64,000 nucleotides of DNA from an uncultured Pelagibacteraceae bacterium (GTDB taxonomy: Bacteria > Pseudomonadota > Alphaproteobacteria > Pelagibacterales > Pelagibacteraceae), in the NCBI GenBank assembly GCA_902630925.1, contig CACOWO010000003.1, positions 6,811 to 70,810 on the forward strand. Direction: 5' to 3'. A program made the translations under genes and the position numbers. The notes under the pieces were generated by a model, which ran no database searches, was not told the DNA's origin, and worked only from the letters and a program-made list of their open reading frames with translations. Shown here in pieces: positions 45,966 to 57,192 of the stretch (positions within the stretch are counted from its first letter, which is position 1; every line of letters begins with the position of its first letter).

Positions 45966-46250
45966 ATGAAAAAAGCTAAAATTTACATACCATCTAAAAC
46001 TGCTATGCAATCGGGCAGGGGTAAGCTCAAAAAATGGGTTTTAGAATTTGAAACAAAAGACCCATCTATAAACCCTCTTATGGGCTGGGAGACTTCTTCA
46101 GATACACTAGAAGAAGTTATTCTTAAATTCTCTACAAGGGAGCAAGCCATAGAATATGCAAAAAAAAATAATATCTCATTTAAAGTTATTGAACCTAAAA
46201 AGAGAGAATTTGTTATTAAATCTTATGCAGACAACTTTCTTAAGAACTAA
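45966..46250 (+). CDS. Complex I accessory subunit (NDUFS4-like, ETC complex I subunit family)
   Basis: [32 protein letters not shown]. Confidence 0.92.
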
Positions 46251-47257: not shown

Positions 47258-48156
47258 TGGAGCTCTACCTAAAACTCATTGATGTAATTGCCCCTGTATT
47301 TTTTGTCATTGGCATTGGATATTACCTTGGAAAAAAAAATCCAGAAATTAGTACTGATTTCATAACTACATTCGCAGGTAACGTAGGTACACCCGCAATG
47401 ATTTTCTACACAATAACAACCACTGGAGTAACTTTAAGCGTTTTTATTGAATACTTCGTTTATGCACTAATTATAATCGGAGGTTTTTCTCTTGTAGGTA
47501 TTCTATTTCTTATAATACTTAAAAAAGATTTTATAAGTGAATTACCACCATTAATTTTACCCAATACTGGAAATATGGGCATTCCTATTTGTTTATTCGC
47601 TTATGGAACAGCTGGGCTAGGGGTCGCATCTGCTATTGCATCAGTAATTATTCTTCTTCATTTTACACTTGGAGTTTTATTAGCCAAAAAAAGCTTTTCA
47701 TTTAAAATCTTAATTAAGAATATGCCAATTTATGGAATAATTGTTTCAGTCATATTTTTATATTTTGATTGGGATGTTCCTGGATATTTAGAAAACACTA
47801 CATTTTTGCTTACATACGCTACTATATTTTTAGTTTTAATGTCTTTAGGTATTGCTTTATCAAGATTAAAAGTAGTGTCTTGGACTCATGCATCAATTTT
47901 AGGAGCAGTTAGAGTTATTATTGGACCTTTAATAGGATTTGGATTAATTAAATTTCTTAATTTAAATGGTTTTGCTGCTGGTGTTCTTCTAATTCAATCA
48001 TGTATGCCAAGTGCGGTTTTAACTTATTTAGTGGGCTCAATGTATTCAGAGAGAAAGGTGGTGGATAGCGTAGCAAGCGTTATCGTGACATCTACTGTTT
48101 TCTCATTTCTCACTATCCCAATTGTAGTTTATTATAGTCTTAAATATTTTCAATAA
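47257..48156 (+). CDS. AEC (auxin efflux carrier)-family transporter
   Basis: PNTGNMGIPI, MPSAV; about 10 TM segments. Confidence 0.87.
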   Translation: MELYLKLIDVIAPVFFVIGIGYYLGKKNPEISTDFITTFAGNVGTPAMIFYTITTTGVTLSVFIEYFVYALIIIGGFSLVGILFLIILKKDFISELPPLILPNTGNMGIPICLFAYGTAGLGVASAIASVIILLHFTLGVLLAKKSFSFKILIKNMPIYGIIVSVIFLYFDWDVPGYLENTTFLLTYATIFLVLMSLGIALSRLKVVSWTHASILGAVRVIIGPLIGFGLIKFLNLNGFAAGVLLIQSCMPSAVLTYLVGSMYSERKVVDSVASVIVTSTVFSFLTIPIVVYYSLKYFQ

Positions 48157-48568
48157 ATACAGTCATTTACAAGATATAATTAAAGTAGTTAGTAAAGTAA
48201 TAGGTAAGGATTATTTATATATATAATTAAAAATGCAAATAAACATTGAAAAATAAAGCTTATTTAAACTAAAAAAAACAATAAATTATTTAAAAGAAGT
48301 GCTTAAAATTAGGGTTTTACAAAATAAACTCTTAAAAAATAAGGATTGATAGGCTAAAATTCAGCAAAATAGGGTGATTTAGACTGCTCTTAAAGCAGCA
48401 ATAATCAATAATTCTACAAGCTTTGCGTGTCCTGAATATAGCGTTTAAACGGCCATAGAGGGTGTTTTTTTTGCAATCATTGATTTTAGAGTACAACTTA
48501 CTGGTGTGTGGGTAAAAAATACATTGAAATATGGGCTAATAGACCCGATCGCCCGTCAAATAACAATT

Positions 48569-48844
48569 CTAGAGCCTTATACCCTCTTTTTTTAGTAAAA
48601 ATCTCTTAGTTTTTACACCTCCTTTCCCTGAATAGCCTCCAAGTGATCCATCTGATCTGATCACTCTATGGCAAGGTATTTTGGGAGCGTAGGGGTTTTT
48701 TCCTATAGCATTGGCCACAGCACGTGCTGCAAGCGGTTTTCCTATGGCTTTTGCCACTTGAGAGTAGGTTTTAATGCTCCCACGAGGTATTTTCCTCAAA
48801 TAAGCCCATACTTTTAGTTGAAATTTAGTTCCTATTAGCTTCAT
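48569..48844 (-). CDS. ogt: Methylated-DNA--protein-cysteine methyltransferase, single-domain form
   Basis: GTKFQLKVW, TYSQVA, ARAVANA, IPCHRVI (active Cys), GGYSG. Confidence 0.9.
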   Translation of the reverse strand: MKLIGTKFQLKVWAYLRKIPRGSIKTYSQVAKAIGKPLAARAVANAIGKNPYAPKIPCHRVIRSDGSLGGYSGKGGVKTKRFLLKKEGIRL

Positions 48845-49008
48845 TAGTCAAATATTAGATAAATTGTTAGAGATATGCCTGTTATAAGCGCTATTATTAA
48901 GCCTAAGGCTATCATTTTTTTGCCTTTTGAGTCTGAGTTAGTCCAGAAGTACGAAATTCCGTAAACAGCAGCTATAAATACTGCTATGGGAAGTAAAAAC
49001 TTAATCAT
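48844..49008 (-). CDS. Small two-TM membrane protein, hypothetical
   Basis: MIKFLLPIAVFIAAVYGISYFW...KKMIALGLIIALITGISLTIYLIFD; its stop overlaps the ogt start; start at 49008 preferred. Confidence 0.65.
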   Translation of the reverse strand: MIKFLLPIAVFIAAVYGISYFWTNSDSKGKKMIALGLIIALITGISLTIYLIFD

Positions 49009-49028
49009 GAGATCATAAATTATACATA

Positions 49029-49057
49029 TTGACATCTAAAATCACTTATTATATTAT
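49029..49057 (+). promoter_or_regulatory. Sigma70-type promoter of the tyrosine recombinase
   Basis: TTGACA (49029-49034), 17 bp, TATTAT (49052-49057). Confidence 0.7.
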
Positions 49058-49084
49058 TTCCGATAATTAATGGTTATCGGAAAT
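49056..49084. repeat. Perfect inverted repeat (11-7-11), dif/lox-like candidate recombination site
   Basis: ATTTCCGATAA-TTAATGG-TTATCGGAAAT, ending 1 bp before the recombinase ATG; repeat seen directly, function inferred. Confidence 0.8.
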
Positions 49085-49085
49085 T

Positions 49086-50000
49086 ATGAATGATTTAACG
49101 ACTGAAATAAAAAAATTAGAAATCCAGACTTTAGACAATTTAAAGCTTTCAAAAGCTAAAAATACTATTCGAGCGTATAAATCTGATTTTAATGATTTTG
49201 TTTTATTTTGCTCCAAACATGGAATGAAAAGTATGCCAACAGACCCTAAGGTAGTGTCGCTTTACTTAACTTACTTATCAAAAAAATCAAAATACAGCAC
49301 CCTAAAAAGACGTTTAGCCTCTATAAATGTAATGCATAGATACAAAGGACATTACCTGGACACCAAACATCCGATTATTATTGAAAACTTATTAGGGATT
49401 AAAAGACTAATAGGAGTTCATCAAAAAGCAAAAAAACCTTTATTATACAATGACTTAAAAAAGATAATTGAAGTTATTAATGCATCTAATGAAAGTGAAT
49501 TTAAAAAACTTAGAGATAAATCCATAATATTAATTGGATTTGCTGGTGGTTTTAGAAGATCAGAATTAGTTTCTATAACAAGAGATGATGTAGAATTTGT
49601 TAATGAAGGGGTAAAAATATTTGTCAAAAAATCAAAATCCGATCAATCAGGAGAAGGAATGACTAAAGCTATCCCCTCTTTTAAATACATAGAATATTGT
49701 CCCGTTAATCATCTTAAAAATTGGATGTTCGAGAATAAGGGCGATTTGATTTTTCCAATATCTGATAAAAATGTAGCCTTAATAATCAAGAAACATGCAT
49801 TAAAGGCAGGATTAGATGAAAAAAAATATGCTGGACATAGCTTAAGATCTGGTTTTGCTACTACAACAGCGGAGTATGGAGCCAGCGAAAGAAATATAAT
49901 GGCTATGACAGGCCACAAGTCTGTTGATATGGTTAGAAGATATATTAAAGAAGCTGATTTATTTAAGAATAACGCTTTGAATAAAATTTCGAGTAAATAA
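49086..50000 (+). CDS. Tyrosine recombinase, Cre-like subgroup
   Basis: SAM-like N-domain (NTIRAYKSDF); catalytic R (GFRRSEL), K (KSKSDQ), HxxR (GHSLRSG), H (TGHKS), Y (RRYI). Confidence 0.93.
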   Translation: MNDLTTEIKKLEIQTLDNLKLSKAKNTIRAYKSDFNDFVLFCSKHGMKSMPTDPKVVSLYLTYLSKKSKYSTLKRRLASINVMHRYKGHYLDTKHPIIIENLLGIKRLIGVHQKAKKPLLYNDLKKIIEVINASNESEFKKLRDKSIILIGFAGGFRRSELVSITRDDVEFVNEGVKIFVKKSKSDQSGEGMTKAIPSFKYIEYCPVNHLKNWMFENKGDLIFPISDKNVALIIKKHALKAGLDEKKYAGHSLRSGFATTTAEYGASERNIMAMTGHKSVDMVRRYIKEADLFKNNALNKISSK

Positions 50001-50007
50001 GGTGATA

Positions 50008-50979
50008 TTAAAATTTTAATATTTTATCAATAAAATTTTCACTTTTAACACCGTAAGATAAAATTTTTTCATAGACTGTGTTAGAGTTTAAATTTGAAAA
50101 ATTATCTTGATTAAAAATACATTCTCCATTCACAATTGGTGGAATTGTAGCTTTTAAATTATTTTTGTGATTTTCGTACCAATTAGTCCCCAATACGATC
50201 ATTGGATGATTATAAGCAGCCAATACCCACATAGATCCTGAGTCAGTTCCCAGAGCAAGCTTTGTACCTAAAGAAATCTTAATTTGATTAAAAAAATTAA
50301 GATTAGTTAGGTTATGATAATGTTTTTTATTTTCTGATAAAAAAGGTTCTTTAAAATAACCAAAATGATAAACATTAATTGAGTTATCAGTTAATTTTTT
50401 TACTAATTCACCCCACCATTTTTGAGAGGGATTACGGTTAATGCTTCTTCCATAACCAGCAAAAGGCCATATAGCCAAAGATTTACTTAAGATTTTATTT
50501 TTTTTAGAATCTACTTTATCGTATGTATAAGCAGCTTTTTTTTGCTCATTCTCAAAACCAACATCAAACCATTTGTTCAAGTATGGAATTTTTTCAATTT
50601 CACTTAAAGCAATATCTAAATCGGTTATACCAGACATTAAAGCTGTTTCTTCAATACAAGATCTTTGATTATACCAGTACTTATCACTATGAAATCTGTC
50701 TAGAATTTTCTTATTTTTGTGATCAAGTTTAGTTGTAATAACATCACACTTAGAAGCAATATTATAATCGTTTAAATTAAACGAACTCCATTCACCAGAA
50801 ATTAATATTTTATCTATATCTGGATGATTAAAAAAAAGAGGAGCACAGTAAGATATTTTCTTATGAATCACAAAATTTATATATGTATTTTTATGTTTTT
50901 TTTTAAAATATTTGAGCTGAGGTAAACTCATAATTAAATCCCCTATTAAACTAAATGAAGTGCCCCAAATCTTAATCAT
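50008..50979 (-). CDS. GT9 (heptosyltransferase-like) glycosyltransferase
   Basis: LIGDLIMSLP N-terminal motif, HPDIDKI, GTDSGSMWVLAA. Confidence 0.72.
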   Translation of the reverse strand: MIKIWGTSFSLIGDLIMSLPQLKYFKKKHKNTYINFVIHKKISYCAPLFFNHPDIDKILISGEWSSFNLNDYNIASKCDVITTKLDHKNKKILDRFHSDKYWYNQRSCIEETALMSGITDLDIALSEIEKIPYLNKWFDVGFENEQKKAAYTYDKVDSKKNKILSKSLAIWPFAGYGRSINRNPSQKWWGELVKKLTDNSINVYHFGYFKEPFLSENKKHYHNLTNLNFFNQIKISLGTKLALGTDSGSMWVLAAYNHPMIVLGTNWYENHKNNLKATIPPIVNGECIFNQDNFSNLNSNTVYEKILSYGVKSENFIDKILKF

Positions 50980-52016
50980 TAGAATTTCTTTGAACTATTA
51001 AAAATATTTTTAAAGATATTATTTAAAGTTATTAATCCTTTAGAGTTTGATTTAAAAACAAATTTATGGTTGGTATTTAAAGGTCTCCAACAACTATACC
51101 ATGTTAAATCTTTTTTATTAATAATATCAATAACATTTGTCTTATTAAACCCTGAAATTTGAACTAAAAATCCAGAATGACAGCTTATAGCAAAGGAAGA
51201 CATCGCTATTAACCTTTCAAACAAAGCTAGATTTAAATTTTCTAAAAAAATAATTTTTTTATTTGTTTTTAGGTTTTGTTTTAAAGTTTTATAGTAAAAA
51301 TCATTATTTTTATTTGATGTAATTACTAATTTTTTATTAATTTTTTTTTGAAAAATTATTAATTCTTTTGAAAGATCTTTGTTGATAAGATGAATATCAT
51401 TCCATTTTTCATCTAGATGAATCAATACATATTTTGATTTAATTTTTTTATTAAATAATTTTGTAGATAGAAAAATATCTTTTTTTTTAATTTCGTAATA
51501 ATAATTTTCTTTTGAGCTTATTTTTAAATTTAGATTATTAGCTAATTTAATCAAAAGAGATGGTAAATGTTCTGCTTTAGATAGATTTTTCTTACTAGTA
51601 AAAGACTCGAATTTATCAAAAATTAAATGATTATAAATAAAATTTGGTTTTGACCATGTTAAATTTAATATTGAATTAAAAAAATTGAAAACGTAAGAAA
51701 TTCCATATTTTTTTTCTGCTTTCAAAAATAAATTAGTTAAATTGGAAAAAGATTTTCCATCTAAGCTTAATGAACAATAATAATTATGTCTTATTATATT
51801 TTTAAAAATTGAAATTTTATTAATTAATTTACTGTTTTTATCATAAACAATTACCTTGTTTATGTTTTTATAAGAATTGATAAGTTTCTTATTATACGGT
51901 GATCCTACTATTGTTATATGTGACGATTTAAATTTTTTTTTAATTGCTTTAATAATATTTGTAATAATTAAAAAATCACCTAATCTATCAGTTCTAAATA
52001 TAATAAATTTTTTCAT
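50979..52016 (-). CDS. GT9 (heptosyltransferase-like) glycosyltransferase
   Basis: FRTDRLGDFLI N-terminal motif, ISCHSG. Confidence 0.7.
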   Translation of the reverse strand: MKKFIIFRTDRLGDFLIITNIIKAIKKKFKSSHITIVGSPYNKKLINSYKNINKVIVYDKNSKLINKISIFKNIIRHNYYCSLSLDGKSFSNLTNLFLKAEKKYGISYVFNFFNSILNLTWSKPNFIYNHLIFDKFESFTSKKNLSKAEHLPSLLIKLANNLNLKISSKENYYYEIKKKDIFLSTKLFNKKIKSKYVLIHLDEKWNDIHLINKDLSKELIIFQKKINKKLVITSNKNNDFYYKTLKQNLKTNKKIIFLENLNLALFERLIAMSSFAISCHSGFLVQISGFNKTNVIDIINKKDLTWYSCWRPLNTNHKFVFKSNSKGLITLNNIFKNIFNSSKKF

Positions 52017-52849
52017 TATAAAATAAATTTAATTATTCTTTTTCTATATCCTAATTTTCTTAATAAATTTATATTAGCAAATAATCCTGGATATTTTTTA
52101 TTTTCAAATATTAATTTAGTTTTGACGTTATTCTTATCTTTAATAAGCTTAATCAAATTGATTAGGTTAAGTTGCTTACCGCTTCCAACATTTACCACTT
52201 TAGTTATTCTTTTATTTAATATAAAAAATAAAACCTCACAAAGTTGATTTAAATTTATATAATCTCTTGAAGTATTGATTTTCCCAATTTTTAATTTTTT
52301 TTTATTAATTCTTAATCTATTTTTAATATCTTGAATAAAAAAACCCTTTCCGTGTTTGCGGGAATAAAAATTGAAGATCCTTGCAATTCCAATTTTAAAT
52401 TTAATTTTTTTATGATTTTTGAAGATAAAATCTTCAACCTTCTTCTTGGATTTTCCATAAATAGTTGAGGGTTTTCTAGTCGATTTCTCAGATAATGATT
52501 TTAATGAGGGTTTATATACATGTGATGTAGAAGAAAATAAAAAATAATTTAGATTAATTAATTTTGATTTATTTAATATTTTGATTATATCAATTGTTGC
52601 TGATGAGTTTACTTTATAAGTGTTTTTAGGATTTATATTAGCTTTTTCTATAGAAGATATACCTGCTAAGTGAATAAAGTATTGAATATCAGAATTTTTA
52701 CTTAGCCAAGATTTAAAATTTTTTTTATTTTCAATTTTATTTTTGTAAATCCTAAAACTTACTTTGGTTTTATATTTTCTAATTAAATGACTTCCTAAAG
52801 CCCCTCTTGCACCTGTTATTCCAATAATTTTTTTAGATACTCTGTTCAA
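52016..52849 (-). CDS. NAD(P)-dependent nucleotide-sugar reductase/epimerase (extended SDR, RMD-like)
   Basis: TGARGALG, HLAG, SSTSHVY, YGKSK (YxxxK), RIFN, RDYI. Confidence 0.8.
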   Translation of the reverse strand: MNRVSKKIIGITGARGALGSHLIRKYKTKVSFRIYKNKIENKKNFKSWLSKNSDIQYFIHLAGISSIEKANINPKNTYKVNSSATIDIIKILNKSKLINLNYFLFSSTSHVYKPSLKSLSEKSTRKPSTIYGKSKKKVEDFIFKNHKKIKFKIGIARIFNFYSRKHGKGFFIQDIKNRLRINKKKLKIGKINTSRDYINLNQLCEVLFFILNKRITKVVNVGSGKQLNLINLIKLIKDKNNVKTKLIFENKKYPGLFANINLLRKLGYRKRIIKFIL

Positions 52850-54026
52850 AAGTTTTAACTATTTTATTTACAAAAATATTATTAATTTTTTTAGTGGGCA
52901 AACCTATAAAAAAACCACGATCATTCACTATATCTGAATTATAAAATTTTGATCCTTTTAGTAGTTTATATTTTTTTACTGATGGTTGTTTAATAAAGTT
53001 TCCACTTATAATAGGTCTTGTTTCTATACCTCTTTTTTCTAAATTTTTAATAATCTTTTTTCGATTATTTTTATTTTTAATATAAATAGGTATACCAAAC
53101 CACGAGGGCTTAACGTTTTCATTGGCCTCTATAAAATAGAAATTGTCGTTAATAATCTTACTTTTTTTTAGAGAGTTGACAATAAAATTTCTGTTTTTAT
53201 TTCTTAGAGATATAAAACTTTTCATATCATTAAATTGGCTTAAGCCAATAGAAGCTGAAATATCGGTTGGTCTTAAATTAAAACCAGAATTAAAAAAAAT
53301 GAATCTTGAGTCTAGATGTTTATTTTTATTAGAAATTCTTTTTTCATTTTTTAATCCTCTTGACCAACCATGGGCTCTAAGAGCTTTGAGAATTTCATAA
53401 TCCTCAAGATTTCTACAGGTTATCATACCACCTTCACCTGAGGAAATTTGATGTGATGAATAAAAAGAAAAAGATGAAAATTCACCAAATGTACCTAGAA
53501 ATTTATTTTTATATCTTGAGCCAAGTGACTCACAAGTATCTTCAATTAAAATAATATTCTTTTTTTTTATTATTTTCATTAATTGATCCATATTCGTTGA
53601 ATTTCCTAAAACATGGACTAACATTAAAGCTTTCGTTTTTTTATTAATTTTTTTAATTAGGTCTTTGATATCAATATTTAATGTAACAGGATCAATATCG
53701 ACAAAAACAGGCTTTAACCCTGATTGAATTATAGGCCATAAAGATGTCGACCAACAAACAGTTGGTATAAGAACTGAGTCTCCCTTTTTTAACCTTTTTT
53801 TTCTATATGGATTTATCAGACATTGCATAGCTAAGAGATTTGCGGAAGATCCTGAATTTACCATTAAAGAAAATTTTGTCTTAATTGTCTTGGTAAATTT
53901 ATTTTCAAATTTTTTAGTATGTTTGCCTATAGTAAGCTTACCTGTTTTTATTACTTCTATAGCTCTACTAAGATCTTTTTTTCTGTAGGGATCTTCAAGA
54001 AGAGGATAAAAAAAGCTTTTTGGCAT
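52833..54026 (-). CDS. PLP-dependent GDP-4-keto-6-deoxymannose 3-dehydratase (ColD-like, DegT family)
   Basis: NSGSSANLL, EDTCESLG, SFYSSHQISSGEGG (His at the usual Lys position), LRAHGWSR, GFNLRP, ETRPIISGN. Confidence 0.78.
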   Translation of the reverse strand: MPKSFFYPLLEDPYRKKDLSRAIEVIKTGKLTIGKHTKKFENKFTKTIKTKFSLMVNSGSSANLLAMQCLINPYRKKRLKKGDSVLIPTVCWSTSLWPIIQSGLKPVFVDIDPVTLNIDIKDLIKKINKKTKALMLVHVLGNSTNMDQLMKIIKKKNIILIEDTCESLGSRYKNKFLGTFGEFSSFSFYSSHQISSGEGGMITCRNLEDYEILKALRAHGWSRGLKNEKRISNKNKHLDSRFIFFNSGFNLRPTDISASIGLSQFNDMKSFISLRNKNRNFIVNSLKKSKIINDNFYFIEANENVKPSWFGIPIYIKNKNNRKKIIKNLEKRGIETRPIISGNFIKQPSVKKYKLLKGSKFYNSDIVNDRGFFIGLPTKKINNIFVNKIVKTFEQSI

Positions 54027-55075
54027 TAACTATTCTCTAATTCGGAAGAAATCATATCCTCAATTAAATCGTCAGTATTATAGATAGGTTTCCATTTAAG
54101 TAATTTTTTGGCTTTAGAGAAATCTCCTTTTAAGAAATCCACCTCAGAAGGTCTAAAGTACTTTTTATCGATTTCAACTATTACATTTTTACTCTCTTGA
54201 TCAATACCTTTTTCTCTCTCACCTTTACCCGTCCATTTAAGTTTAATATCAAGCTTTTTTGCTACTTTATTTACAAATGTTTTTACAGTGGTTTCTTTAT
54301 TTGTCGCAATAACCCAATCATCAGGTTTTTTATACTGCAAAATTTTCCACATTGATATTGCGTAGTCTTTCGCATGGCCCCAATCTCTAATTGCGTACAA
54401 ATTCCCTAAAGTTAATTTTTTTTGATATCCTTTTTTAATACGAACTAAACCTTGGACAATTTTTTTAGTTACAAAGGTGGGTCCTCGTCTAGGCGACTCG
54501 TGATTAAATAAAATACCATTAGAAGCAAAAATTCCATATGCCTCTCTGTAATGAACTGCTGCATGAAAAGCAAAAACTTTTGAAACACCATAAACCGATC
54601 TAGGATGAAAAGGGGTTAATTCATTTAGAGAATTTCTTTTTTTTACTAATCCATACATCTCAGAACTTGAGGCTTGATAGTATTTTGTTTTTTTTAATTT
54701 TAATATTCTGATAGCTTCTAGTATCCTAAGAGCTCCTAATGCTGTAATATCTGCTGTGTATTCAGGCACATCAAAAGAAACCCTTACATGACTTTGTGCT
54801 GCAAGATTATATATTTCGTCTGGTTTTACTTTATTAATAATACTTAATGTACTCGTACCATCAGATATATCTCCGTAATGTATAAAAAAATTTTTACTAG
54901 TAAAGTTTAAACTATCAAACAAATGATCTATTCTTTCTGTATTTGCACTCGATGATCTTCTCTTTACCCCGTGAATAATATAATTTTTTTTCAAAAGAAG
55001 TTCAGCTAGGTAAGAGCCATCTTGACCAGTAATACCAAAAATAATTGCTGTTTTTCTTTTTCTTAATTTTCCCAT
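54026..55075 (-). CDS. gmd: GDP-mannose 4,6-dehydratase
   Basis: GITGQDGSYLA, YNLAAQSHV, YQASSSEMYG, LFNHESPRRG, RDWGHAKDY. Confidence 0.96.
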   Translation of the reverse strand: MGKLRKRKTAIIFGITGQDGSYLAELLLKKNYIIHGVKRRSSSANTERIDHLFDSLNFTSKNFFIHYGDISDGTSTLSIINKVKPDEIYNLAAQSHVRVSFDVPEYTADITALGALRILEAIRILKLKKTKYYQASSSEMYGLVKKRNSLNELTPFHPRSVYGVSKVFAFHAAVHYREAYGIFASNGILFNHESPRRGPTFVTKKIVQGLVRIKKGYQKKLTLGNLYAIRDWGHAKDYAISMWKILQYKKPDDWVIATNKETTVKTFVNKVAKKLDIKLKWTGKGEREKGIDQESKNVIVEIDKKYFRPSEVDFLKGDFSKAKKLLKWKPIYNTDDLIEDMISSELENS

Positions 55076-57192
55076 AAATATTTCTTTTTTGATTTTATTT
55101 CTAATGTTTTATCTATTATGTATTCTGATACAAGATCAGAATTAAAATATTTCATATATTTTATTTTTCCATTTCTTGCAATTTTTTTTCTTAATCGTTC
55201 ATCTGAGGATACTTTTATAACCTTTTCAGAGAGATCATTCACATTTTTATAAAAAACCATCTCATTATCATTAAAAAAATTTTTATACTTTGTTTTTTCA
55301 TCGATTAAACATACAAGCCCATTACCTACAATTTGTGTTATTCTATCACTGCTATAATATTTAATTGCATCCCCTCTGCTCAAGTTTAATCCCATTTTTG
55401 CATTTGAGATTGTTTTAAAGTAGTGATCCGCCCAAATAGGTTGAATCTTATCAATACCATAGATATCAAATTTAATATTAGGAGTATTTTTTCTTAGATT
55501 GTTTAAGAAAAGTATTCTATCGTCTGTTTTACCAGATTTTAACACTCCTCTATGAACCCCATGACTTAACGCAAAAAATACATCAACATTACAAGATTTA
55601 TTAAAATTATTAAGTGTTTCAAAAGATCTATCACTAGGGTTAGGTATATAAAAACTATTATCACTTTTTAAAAAGTTTAATACGTCCGGACTAGTCGTAA
55701 GAAAAGTTGAGTCTACAACTTTTATTTTATCTAATATTCTATCTTTATTTCTCTCAAAATCAGGTCCATTTTTATTTAACGGATCTAAAAACCATTGGCA
55801 AAATTTTGTGTTCGGATAATCTTGTCTCAACTCCGCTATTTGATCTTTTGAAATAAGATCAGCGTGACCTAATACAATTAGATCAGGTTTATAATTATAA
55901 CAAGTTTTTTTAAGTTTATCATTCAGAGTTTTTGCACCTTTAAAATCTCTTATCGATTTGTAATATTTTTGGATATCTCGATCACTAAATCCAAGTACAC
56001 TATGACCTTGTCTTATAAATCCGTTATTAATTCTTCTGCCAGTATTAAAAAAAAGTCTTCCATCCAATCTTTCATTAAAATTTGTTATATGCAAAATACG
56101 TAGCGATTTTTTTTCTTTTTTATTAAAAAAAAATTTATTTAATTTTAATTTTTCATCTCTATAGTTATCTATCATATTTGTAACAAATTCATGTGTAAGG
56201 TAAAAATTTTCTATTGACTGCTTTTGTAATTTTTTTCTTATATTCTCTTTTTTAATTAAAAAATTAATTTCTCTTGTTAAGGATTTGACTGATAGATTAG
56301 ATAAAATTCTTGCATTGGTAATTGTTTCAGGCAATCCTCCTTTATTTGTAATTATTACAGCACAACCATTAGCAGATGCCTCCAAACTTGTTCTGCCAAA
56401 AGGCTCTTCCCACCTTGAGCAAGCTACAGCTATACTTGAATCTTTAAAAACTTTCAGTACTTGTTCATGATTTAAGAAACCAAGGAGATCTGCATTTTTG
56501 TGGTTAAGATTAATTTTTTCTCTTTTTTCATCTCCTATAATTTTTGCTTTCCATTTTGGATATTTTTTTAAAATCTTTTGAATTGATTTAACAAATATAT
56601 CATATCCTTTTGCTCTGTTTAACTTCCCAACAAATGTAATCCAATTTTTTTTTTTGATGATATTTGAAATTTTTCCCTTTTTAGCTGATTGAAAAAAAAC
56701 AGCTAACTTATTGCTATTAACAAATTTATTTTCCAGTCCTTCTAGAAATCTTTTTTTTGACCAATTACTATTAAAAATTATTTTATAACAGATCTTTAAT
56801 AATTTTTTCCTTTCTTCGATTGTTTTTGAGCCATCCATAGATAATGGATCATTATGAAAATATAACGAGTAAATACTATTAGGAGATTTACTACTTAATT
56901 GTTTAATATAACTAGGCCTATTATGTACTTCAATAATTGTAAATTTATATTTATTTTGCAAATTAATAAATTTATTTACATAATTTTTAGTTTGACTACT
57001 TAGTAATTGTTTAGTTAAGTTTATATTTTCGTATCTTATATTAAATTTTTTTTTAAAATTCGTATTACCAAAAACAATTATATCTTTTTTATATTTACTT
57101 TTTCTTGTAGTTTCGTATACAAATAATGATACTGCCCCCGGATATTCTGGAGAAAAATTTTCTTTGTATGGTAATAAAATTCCTATTTTCAC
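55063..57192 (-). CDS. Two-domain glycosyltransferase (GT4-like plus a second GT-B domain)
   Basis: N-half FVGKL..AKG, WEEPFGRTSLEA; C-half YSSDRITQIVGNGL; 709 aa. Confidence 0.82.
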   Translation of the reverse strand: MKIGILLPYKENFSPEYPGAVSLFVYETTRKSKYKKDIIVFGNTNFKKKFNIRYENINLTKQLLSSQTKNYVNKFINLQNKYKFTIIEVHNRPSYIKQLSSKSPNSIYSLYFHNDPLSMDGSKTIEERKKLLKICYKIIFNSNWSKKRFLEGLENKFVNSNKLAVFFQSAKKGKISNIIKKKNWITFVGKLNRAKGYDIFVKSIQKILKKYPKWKAKIIGDEKREKINLNHKNADLLGFLNHEQVLKVFKDSSIAVACSRWEEPFGRTSLEASANGCAVIITNKGGLPETITNARILSNLSVKSLTREINFLIKKENIRKKLQKQSIENFYLTHEFVTNMIDNYRDEKLKLNKFFFNKKEKKSLRILHITNFNERLDGRLFFNTGRRINNGFIRQGHSVLGFSDRDIQKYYKSIRDFKGAKTLNDKLKKTCYNYKPDLIVLGHADLISKDQIAELRQDYPNTKFCQWFLDPLNKNGPDFERNKDRILDKIKVVDSTFLTTSPDVLNFLKSDNSFYIPNPSDRSFETLNNFNKSCNVDVFFALSHGVHRGVLKSGKTDDRILFLNNLRKNTPNIKFDIYGIDKIQPIWADHYFKTISNAKMGLNLSRGDAIKYYSSDRITQIVGNGLVCLIDEKTKYKNFFNDNEMVFYKNVNDLSEKVIKVSSDERLRKKIARNGKIKYMKYFNSDLVSEYIIDKTLEIKSKKKYLWEN

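Follow-up and report, generated by a model that had tools for sequence, protein, structure and literature searches.

How do bacteria of the SAR11 group, which outnumber all other bacterial groups of the ocean and recombine often, resolve chromosome dimers? RecA is present in HTCC1062 (Carnoy & Roten supplement, PMC2731167), so chromosome dimers should arise in these organisms. A survey of proteobacterial dif/Xer systems lists P. ubique as devoid of dif/Xer, and its supplement records the 'absence of dif-related sequence' for HTCC1062 (PMC2731167). In the literature searched, no description of a SAR11 Xer or dif was found, only this absence statement and automated labels, which read 'XerC/XerD' or 'XerD' or, in a 2026 preprint, a Prokka-derived 'XerC and XerD'. 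The stretch of DNA analysed here (64,000 nucleotides from an uncultured Pelagibacteraceae bacterium, hereafter the window) contains a tyrosine recombinase gene immediately preceded by an inverted repeat, a pair that the original prediction read as a single-recombinase system for chromosome dimer resolution. This reading is now supported by the position of the locus at the replication terminus, by the absence of XerCD/dif and by the conservation of the site, and by nothing biochemical. In particular, we assign a probability of roughly 80% to the locus being a one-enzyme chromosome dimer resolution module, whose binding, catalysis, role in dimer resolution, dependence on FtsK and autoregulation are all inferred. 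There is no biochemical or genetic evidence for the module, and no proven Xer is orthologous to its enzyme.

The gene (49086..50000, plus strand) is an intact open reading frame for a tyrosine recombinase of 304 aa with a predicted Cre-like fold, in which Pfam detects a Phage_integrase domain (E 2e-21) together with an N-terminal SAM-like domain. Alignment to XerD identifies the catalytic set R157, K184, H251-x-x-R254, H277 and Y286, which is invariant across 34 orthologues. The inverted repeat sits between the ATG and a near-consensus promoter. Specifically, it consists of a left arm of 11 nt (49056..49066), whose inner 9 nt are nearly invariant among sites of the window's type (type 1), an asymmetric 7-nt central region, TTAATGG (49067..49073), conserved as TTAATKG and presumed to be the directional segment of strand exchange, and a right arm of 11 nt (49074..49084), the perfect reverse complement of the left one. 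The arms are presumed to bind recombinase monomers, in the absence of any binding data, and a single base separates the end of the repeat at 49084 from the ATG at 49086. The promoter (49029..49057, plus strand), made of TTGACA, a 17-nt spacer and TATTAT, is the best match of the region (11/12), and the last bases of its -10 hexamer are also the outermost of the left arm. The original prediction had described an 11-7-11 repeat with perfectly complementary arms ending 1 bp before the start of an intact gene, a full R-K-HxxR-H-Y set and an 8/11 match between the arm and the E. coli XerD arm; the first two descriptions are borne out by the analysis and the third holds by inspection. It was also right that phage and transposon genes are missing from the immediate surroundings, where there are no tRNA genes either, and that gene orientation flips at the locus: among ORFs of at least 100 aa, plus outnumbers minus by 39 to 9 left of the site, and minus outnumbers plus by 9 to 2 right of it. 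An Rfam scan of 47500-50500 returned no match, and neither did a two-site pattern search of the window. A palindrome of this kind is not rare in itself: perfect repeats with arms of at least 11 and spacers of 4-10 give 47 register hits, at about 25-30 loci, in the window's assembly (818 kb, 31 contigs, 72% complete), and most of them are terminator-like. Consequently, the case rests on comparative evidence, that is, on conservation.

The recombinase gene is a chromosomal, vertically conserved, single-copy core gene of the family. An orthologue is found in 118 of 151 Pelagibacteraceae genomes (50 of the 57 high-quality ones) and, in a second sample restricted to a completeness of at least 80%, in 90 of 93 family genomes. 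About 80 of the 112 high-quality family genomes having any Phage_integrase match possess exactly one, the orthologue, and the additional matches in the family are sporadic phage-type integrases. The complete genome G120 (1,308,759 bp, 29.7% GC), which we take to be HTCC1062, is among those with exactly one match, and the gene at 49086..50000 is the sole tyrosine recombinase found in the window's assembly. In five few-contig assemblies of low completeness (G006, G054, G061, G089 and G097) the recombinase is heavily interrupted by stops, with a perfect site beside it in all but G097; these interruptions are most likely long-read assembly indel errors rather than pseudogenes.

Conservation extends to the site. 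The type-1 core (up to 2 mismatches) occurs in 57 genomes, always directly 5' of the recombinase gene and in constant orientation, with one copy in 56 of them; the lone exception has two sites, each beside a recombinase fragment. The window's own assembly, G120 and a second complete genome, G036, have one copy of the site each. Across 49 loci, whose recombinases are 51-100% identical, core and spacer are nearly invariant and the intergenic flanks diverge freely. Whatever their type, nearly all these loci have TTAATKG as the spacer, with six single-base exceptions counting both searches, and the orientation of the spacer relative to the gene is constant. The palindrome first noticed in a single genome is thus conserved among orthologues, together with its spacer, upstream of the gene and in single copy.

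The promoter is conserved as well, as TTGACA and a TATAWT-like hexamer lie at a fixed distance from the site in the 49 orthologous loci. Since the left arm overlaps both the -10 hexamer and the expected transcription start, the bound recombinase would probably repress its own gene, and part of the conservation of a palindrome in this operator position could come from autoregulation alone. Taken further, the palindrome might be nothing but an operator, at which the recombinase or some other dimeric protein acts as a repressor, with the true substrate or role of the enzyme residing elsewhere or lost. The overlap with the -10 hexamer and transcription start, and the invariable distance from the -35 hexamer, are what this explanation would predict; however, it has no need of an invariant asymmetric spacer, no other candidate site is conserved that could serve as the substrate, and the catalytic residues are invariant. 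Together with the terminus position and the phage copies described below, these points make it quite unlikely that the palindrome is only an operator.

A second type of site provides further information on how the repeat is recognised. All 20 examined family genomes that possess the orthologue and lack a type-1 match, G120 included, carry a variant (type-2) site, which retains the inner GATAA, the spacer and TTATC and differs in the outer arms (left ACTAACGATAA, right TTATCAATAGT, reaching about 15 nt each). Between the two types, two arm positions are changed in parallel on both sides, and in type-2 genomes the outer positions of the left arm change together with the right arm. The recombinase tree is split into two clades (SH-aLRT 97 and 95), with one divergent type-2 sequence (L043) outside its clade, and the two clades coincide exactly with the two arm types. 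This co-variation of arm and clade is the pattern expected if one protein reads both arms. Moreover, both types are found within the same genera, the window's genus included, and do not follow genus. In two members of the window's genus with the other type (L036 and L037), the Ogt-like gene of the left flank is 84-88% identical and a small ORF 72-86% identical to the window's, whereas the recombinase is merely 63-66% identical; in same-type congeners of similar flank divergence, the recombinase is about 80-83% identical. This contrast in identity points to a putative exchange of gene and site as a cassette or, possibly, to an old polymorphism.

The comparison of the two types also bears on the proposal that the repeat works at the RNA level, as a hairpin of the 5' leader that controls translation or stability. 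The repeat would fold at -12.9 kcal/mol (z = -2.5) and some of the differences between arm types are compensatory, but most type-2 sites have two adjacent stem mismatches, the loop sequence is invariant and no Rfam family matches. In addition, the conserved promoter should direct transcription to start inside the left arm, so that the full hairpin would be absent from the RNA, which argues against such a role. Hence, a regulatory hairpin can be given hardly any weight.

A dimer resolution site is expected to act at the replication terminus, and the cumulative skews of two complete genomes and one contig, the only ones in which the position was tested, place it there. In G120 the site (998,842-998,858) lies between the GC-skew maximum at 995,999 and the AT-skew maximum at 1,002,175; dnaA is located at 399 kb, near the skew minimum at 308-369 kb. 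In G036, which belongs to another genus and has the window's site type, the site (426,163-426,179) is followed by the recombinase gene (426,188-427,102), and the GC-skew and AT-skew maxima (427,063 and 427,109) fall at the 3' end of the gene. In the window's own 85-kb contig, in window coordinates, the GC-skew maximum (50,169) is found about 170 bp past the recombinase stop codon and the AT-skew maximum at 46,208, with the site at 49,056-49,084. The distance from the site to the cumulative GC-skew maximum is 2.9 kb in G120, 0.9 kb in G036 and 1.1 kb in the own contig. The skew inversion therefore coincides with the locus in all three sequences, in agreement with the skew shift point published for HTCC1062 at 995,771 (Carnoy & Roten supplement, PMC2731167). 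These genomes are related and syntenic and so do not amount to three independent trials. Still, nothing would oblige an operator to keep to within 1-3 kb of the skew inversion in different genera.

Both flanks of the locus have features of their own. On the left, a non-coding element of about 30-90 nt (48413-48500), inside a 412-bp gene-free stretch (48157-48568), contains the palindrome CGTTTAAACG followed by GGCCATAGA and has no Rfam match; it is 79-97% identical in distant genera, and its distance upstream of the recombinase is always 0.5-0.9 kb, whether or not the genes in between are the same. On the right, a run of minus-strand genes (50008-56838) begins with two genes without Pfam match, followed by an epimerase/dehydratase and a DegT-type enzyme. 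Since the first of these genes recurs at only 1 of 49 related loci, the neighbour of the terminus in the window's lineage is a variable surface-glycan region.

With such a neighbour, the recombinase might be regarded as a domesticated or resident integrase of a mobile element, and the repeat as its attachment site, marking for example the border of an island formed by the right-hand glycan cluster. The variable right flank, a fold closest to that of a phage enzyme and the distribution of relatives outside the order, which tblastn detects in only 20 of 298 other alphaproteobacterial genomes, patchy and distant (25-41% identity), would all suit an integrase. Against it stand a single-copy core gene across the family, one site per genome instead of two flanking an element, a left flank that is syntenic within the genus, the coincidence with the terminus in G120 and G036 and the lack of other mobility genes nearby. 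That the locus is such an integrase with its attachment site is accordingly held to be most improbable, and the reading of the locus as a dimer resolution module is retained.

The window recombinase reaches 41-86 bits on NCBIfam models whose cut-offs are 220-335, and meets none of them: 73.4 and 79 bits on XerC (TIGR02224) and XerD (TIGR02225), against 335 and 330, 40.7 on XerS (NF003462), against 267, and 85.8 on archaeal XerA (NF040815), against 220. The proteins of G120 and G036 score 66-81 bits on the XerC/XerD models. Another family of the same order has two paralogues, with 316-324 bits on XerD and 313-315 bits on XerC, and three of its genomes (G535, G525 and G537) contain an identical, perfect 21-nt canonical dif core together with the xerC and xerD genes. 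The canonical dif core has no match in G120; in G036, a single match with 2 mismatches, 330 kb from the terminus and at the level of the reversed-pattern control, is not credible. In other words, xerC/xerD and a canonical dif, the presence of which would have spoken against the original prediction, were not found in Pelagibacteraceae and are both present in a family of the same order. Judged from this gene and site content, XerCD/dif in Pelagibacteraceae is replaced, not merely missing. An FtsK with a gamma domain is encoded in the window's own genome and in four relatives, a finding that concerns presence only and not coupling to the recombinase. A search for FtsK-orienting words among the strongly strand-skewed 8-mers of G120 and G036 gave no clear candidate; since the site itself had served to delimit the replichores, the search was circular.

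The patchy relatives outside the order lie nearer to the window recombinase than genuine XerC and XerD do. In f161, an AT-rich alphaproteobacterial family with genomes of 1.2-1.6 Mb, a relative of 352 aa is conserved as a single-copy gene in 25 of 31 genomes and is the sole tyrosine recombinase in 2 of the 3 genomes checked. Some 40 nt ahead of the start of this ORF (L182 / L205-L216) lies an invariant 10-6-10 palindrome, with arms ending in CGATAA and starting with TTATCG, which has a TTGACT hexamer on one side and the ATG on the other. Among the patchy alphaproteobacterial relatives, a similar upstream palindrome was found only at this AT-rich locus. Another family of the same order as f161 has no such relative (0 of 30 genomes), and the two of its genomes that were checked carry two strong Xer-like genes. 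On this evidence a second small-genome alphaproteobacterial family shows what seems to be the same layout, the terminus position being untested there.

The site is also present in phages. Exact copies of its 25-nt core are found in 12 IMG/VR contigs (L189-L200), nine of type 1 and three of type 2. No recombinase match was detected in these 12 contigs, and no Phage_integrase domain in the four largest phage fragments (28-46% complete) or in the complete phage HTVC106P. Annotation of two contigs, L198 and L189, shows phage genes around the site, coding for small and large terminase, portal, major head protein and a replication initiator, with the site shortly before the large terminase gene. The portals are 76% identical to that of HTVC106P and 64-66% identical to those of HTVC010P-type pelagiphages. 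In several contigs the perfect site is immediately adjoined by a degenerate one of the other type. Site-like elements occur at the equivalent place in the isolates HTVC106P (L201, 35381-35440), HTVC100P, HTVC035P and Greip (isolate elements in L202-L204, near 1500-1560), with matching arms and an altered centre, often of 6 nt. Phages of this kind are treated as lytic and without integrase (bioRxiv 10.1101/2019.12.14.876532), and tRNA genes are the integration sites of every temperate pelagiphage known (PMC8477408). No prophage was found at the host site: TerL is present in 7 of 401 family genomes, in none of them placeable beside the recombinase (two loci elsewhere on the recombinase contig, the rest on other contigs), and two of the seven genomes have a second integrase-domain match, in one case close to TerL.

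Whether the phages would use the host enzyme for integration, cyclisation or multimer resolution, each of these possibilities implies that the site is a substrate recombined in trans. Neither a pure operator nor an RNA hairpin accounts for the phage copies: an operator would not be expected to turn up beside the terminase genes of phages, and the copies stand outside any leader context. They might instead suggest that the module is mainly phage-related, that is, that the host recombinase and site are kept or exploited for cyclisation, multimer resolution or integration of phage genomes. Copies of the site in pelagiphages without a recombinase agree with this, but a module that only imposed a cost, or only served phages, would not stay a core terminus gene across the family, and with true dif sites mobile elements exploit Xer as a rule (PMC9765430). 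A primarily phage-related function is considered very unlikely. A broader reading that joins the separate observations is possible but doubtful: two mutually incompatible types of the module would be swapped as cassettes, integrase-less pelagiphages would exploit it, type switching would be an escape of the host and dual sites the counter-move of the phage, and a second alphaproteobacterial family would have independently replaced XerCD with a related module. Were it true, the dimer resolution site of the host would be a battleground between host and phage.

As regards the mechanism, two Cre-like recombinase monomers would bind the two arms of the single terminus site. Following the fusion of sister chromosomes by homologous recombination, the sister sites would meet at the division septum, presumably by FtsK translocation, and four monomers would exchange strands across the 7-nt central region, converting the dimer into two monomers. 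In E. coli, Cre-loxP replacing dif resolves chromosome dimers, for which it needs KOPS-guided FtsK translocation and not FtsK activation (PMC2680272). A simple Cre-type pair at the terminus thus suffices, and on this precedent homotetrameric recombination between FtsK-assembled sister sites is proposed for the SAR11 module.

If confirmed, a naturally occurring Cre/lox-like module of the terminus would alter the record of SAR11 as devoid of dif/Xer and would add a further single-recombinase solution to chromosome dimer resolution, with XerCD replaced, and not simply lost, in a free-living streamlined genome. For abundant pelagiphages, so far classed as strictly lytic, the host enzyme may be a means of genome integration, cyclisation or resolution, and such use would bear on estimates of lysogeny in the ocean. 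Furthermore, to our knowledge no genetic tools exist for SAR11, and the compact enzyme with its 29-bp site could serve as one.

To which of the known systems does the module compare? An AlphaFold2 model built from 34 orthologues (mean pLDDT 82.5) was searched with Foldseek, and Cre or Tre chains occupy the first 30 places among the PDB matches (E 1e-11 to 3e-8, TM 0.62-0.71), followed by XerA, XerH (TM 0.66; E 1e-7), an integron integrase and lambda Int. At the sequence level, phmmer against the PDB gives XerD as the best full-length match (5e-11), with a Cre match limited to residues 26-196, the N-terminal domain (E about 1e-7). The label 'Cre-like' used in the original prediction is therefore fair for the predicted fold, because the 30 best structural matches are Cre or Tre, and the modelled protein belongs to no named Xer family.

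Among single-recombinase systems, XerS/difSL of streptococci and lactococci shares with the SAR11 module one recombinase, a site immediately upstream of its gene, the terminus position and the absence of XerCD (PMC1914069). The SAR11 protein is not, however, an XerS orthologue, its arms are symmetric around 7 nt and its host belongs to another phylum. The difSL site itself lacks such symmetry and has a longer central region. XerH/difH of Helicobacter and Campylobacter is similar in having a single recombinase, a dif-like site and a related fold (TM about 0.66), but Cre outranks XerH in the fold search (E 1e-11 versus 1e-7), and HTCC1062 obtains only 47 bits against XerH in the Carnoy & Roten table (PMC2731167). 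Legionellales, once reported to be without dif/Xer, use the divergent single recombinase XerL, and a mobile element carries a mimic of their site (PMC9765430). XerL is thus a precedent for an overlooked system in a proteobacterial group reported to lack dif/Xer; unlike the SAR11 module, for which there is no experiment, it rests on genetic proof, and adjacency of the Legionella dif to xerL is not part of the published description (PMC9765430). As to the phage copies, they resemble the integrative elements that exploit Xer (IMEX, such as CTX-phi and LME-1), in that phage genomes without a recombinase match carry copies of the host site; pelagiphages differ from them in being tailed and described as lytic, with no integrated form found and, in some isolates, a 6-nt centre.

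Two further comparisons are with Cre/loxP and with XerC/XerD-dif. From XerC/XerD-dif the module departs by employing one enzyme instead of two paralogues, by scores of 73-79 bits against cut-offs of about 330 and by its 7-nt spacer; it retains the terminus position, arms of about 11 nt, the inner ATAA/TTAT, the 8/11 XerD-arm match and an FtsK with gamma domain. From Cre/loxP of phage P1 it is distinguished by an identity of only about 18-20%, by an 11-7-11 rather than 13-8-13 site, by a gene that belongs to the natural chromosomal core and not to a phage or plasmid, and by a site that overlaps the promoter of its own gene. With Cre/loxP, which provides its best structural match, the SAR11 module has in common a single enzyme, a symmetric site and an asymmetric spacer.
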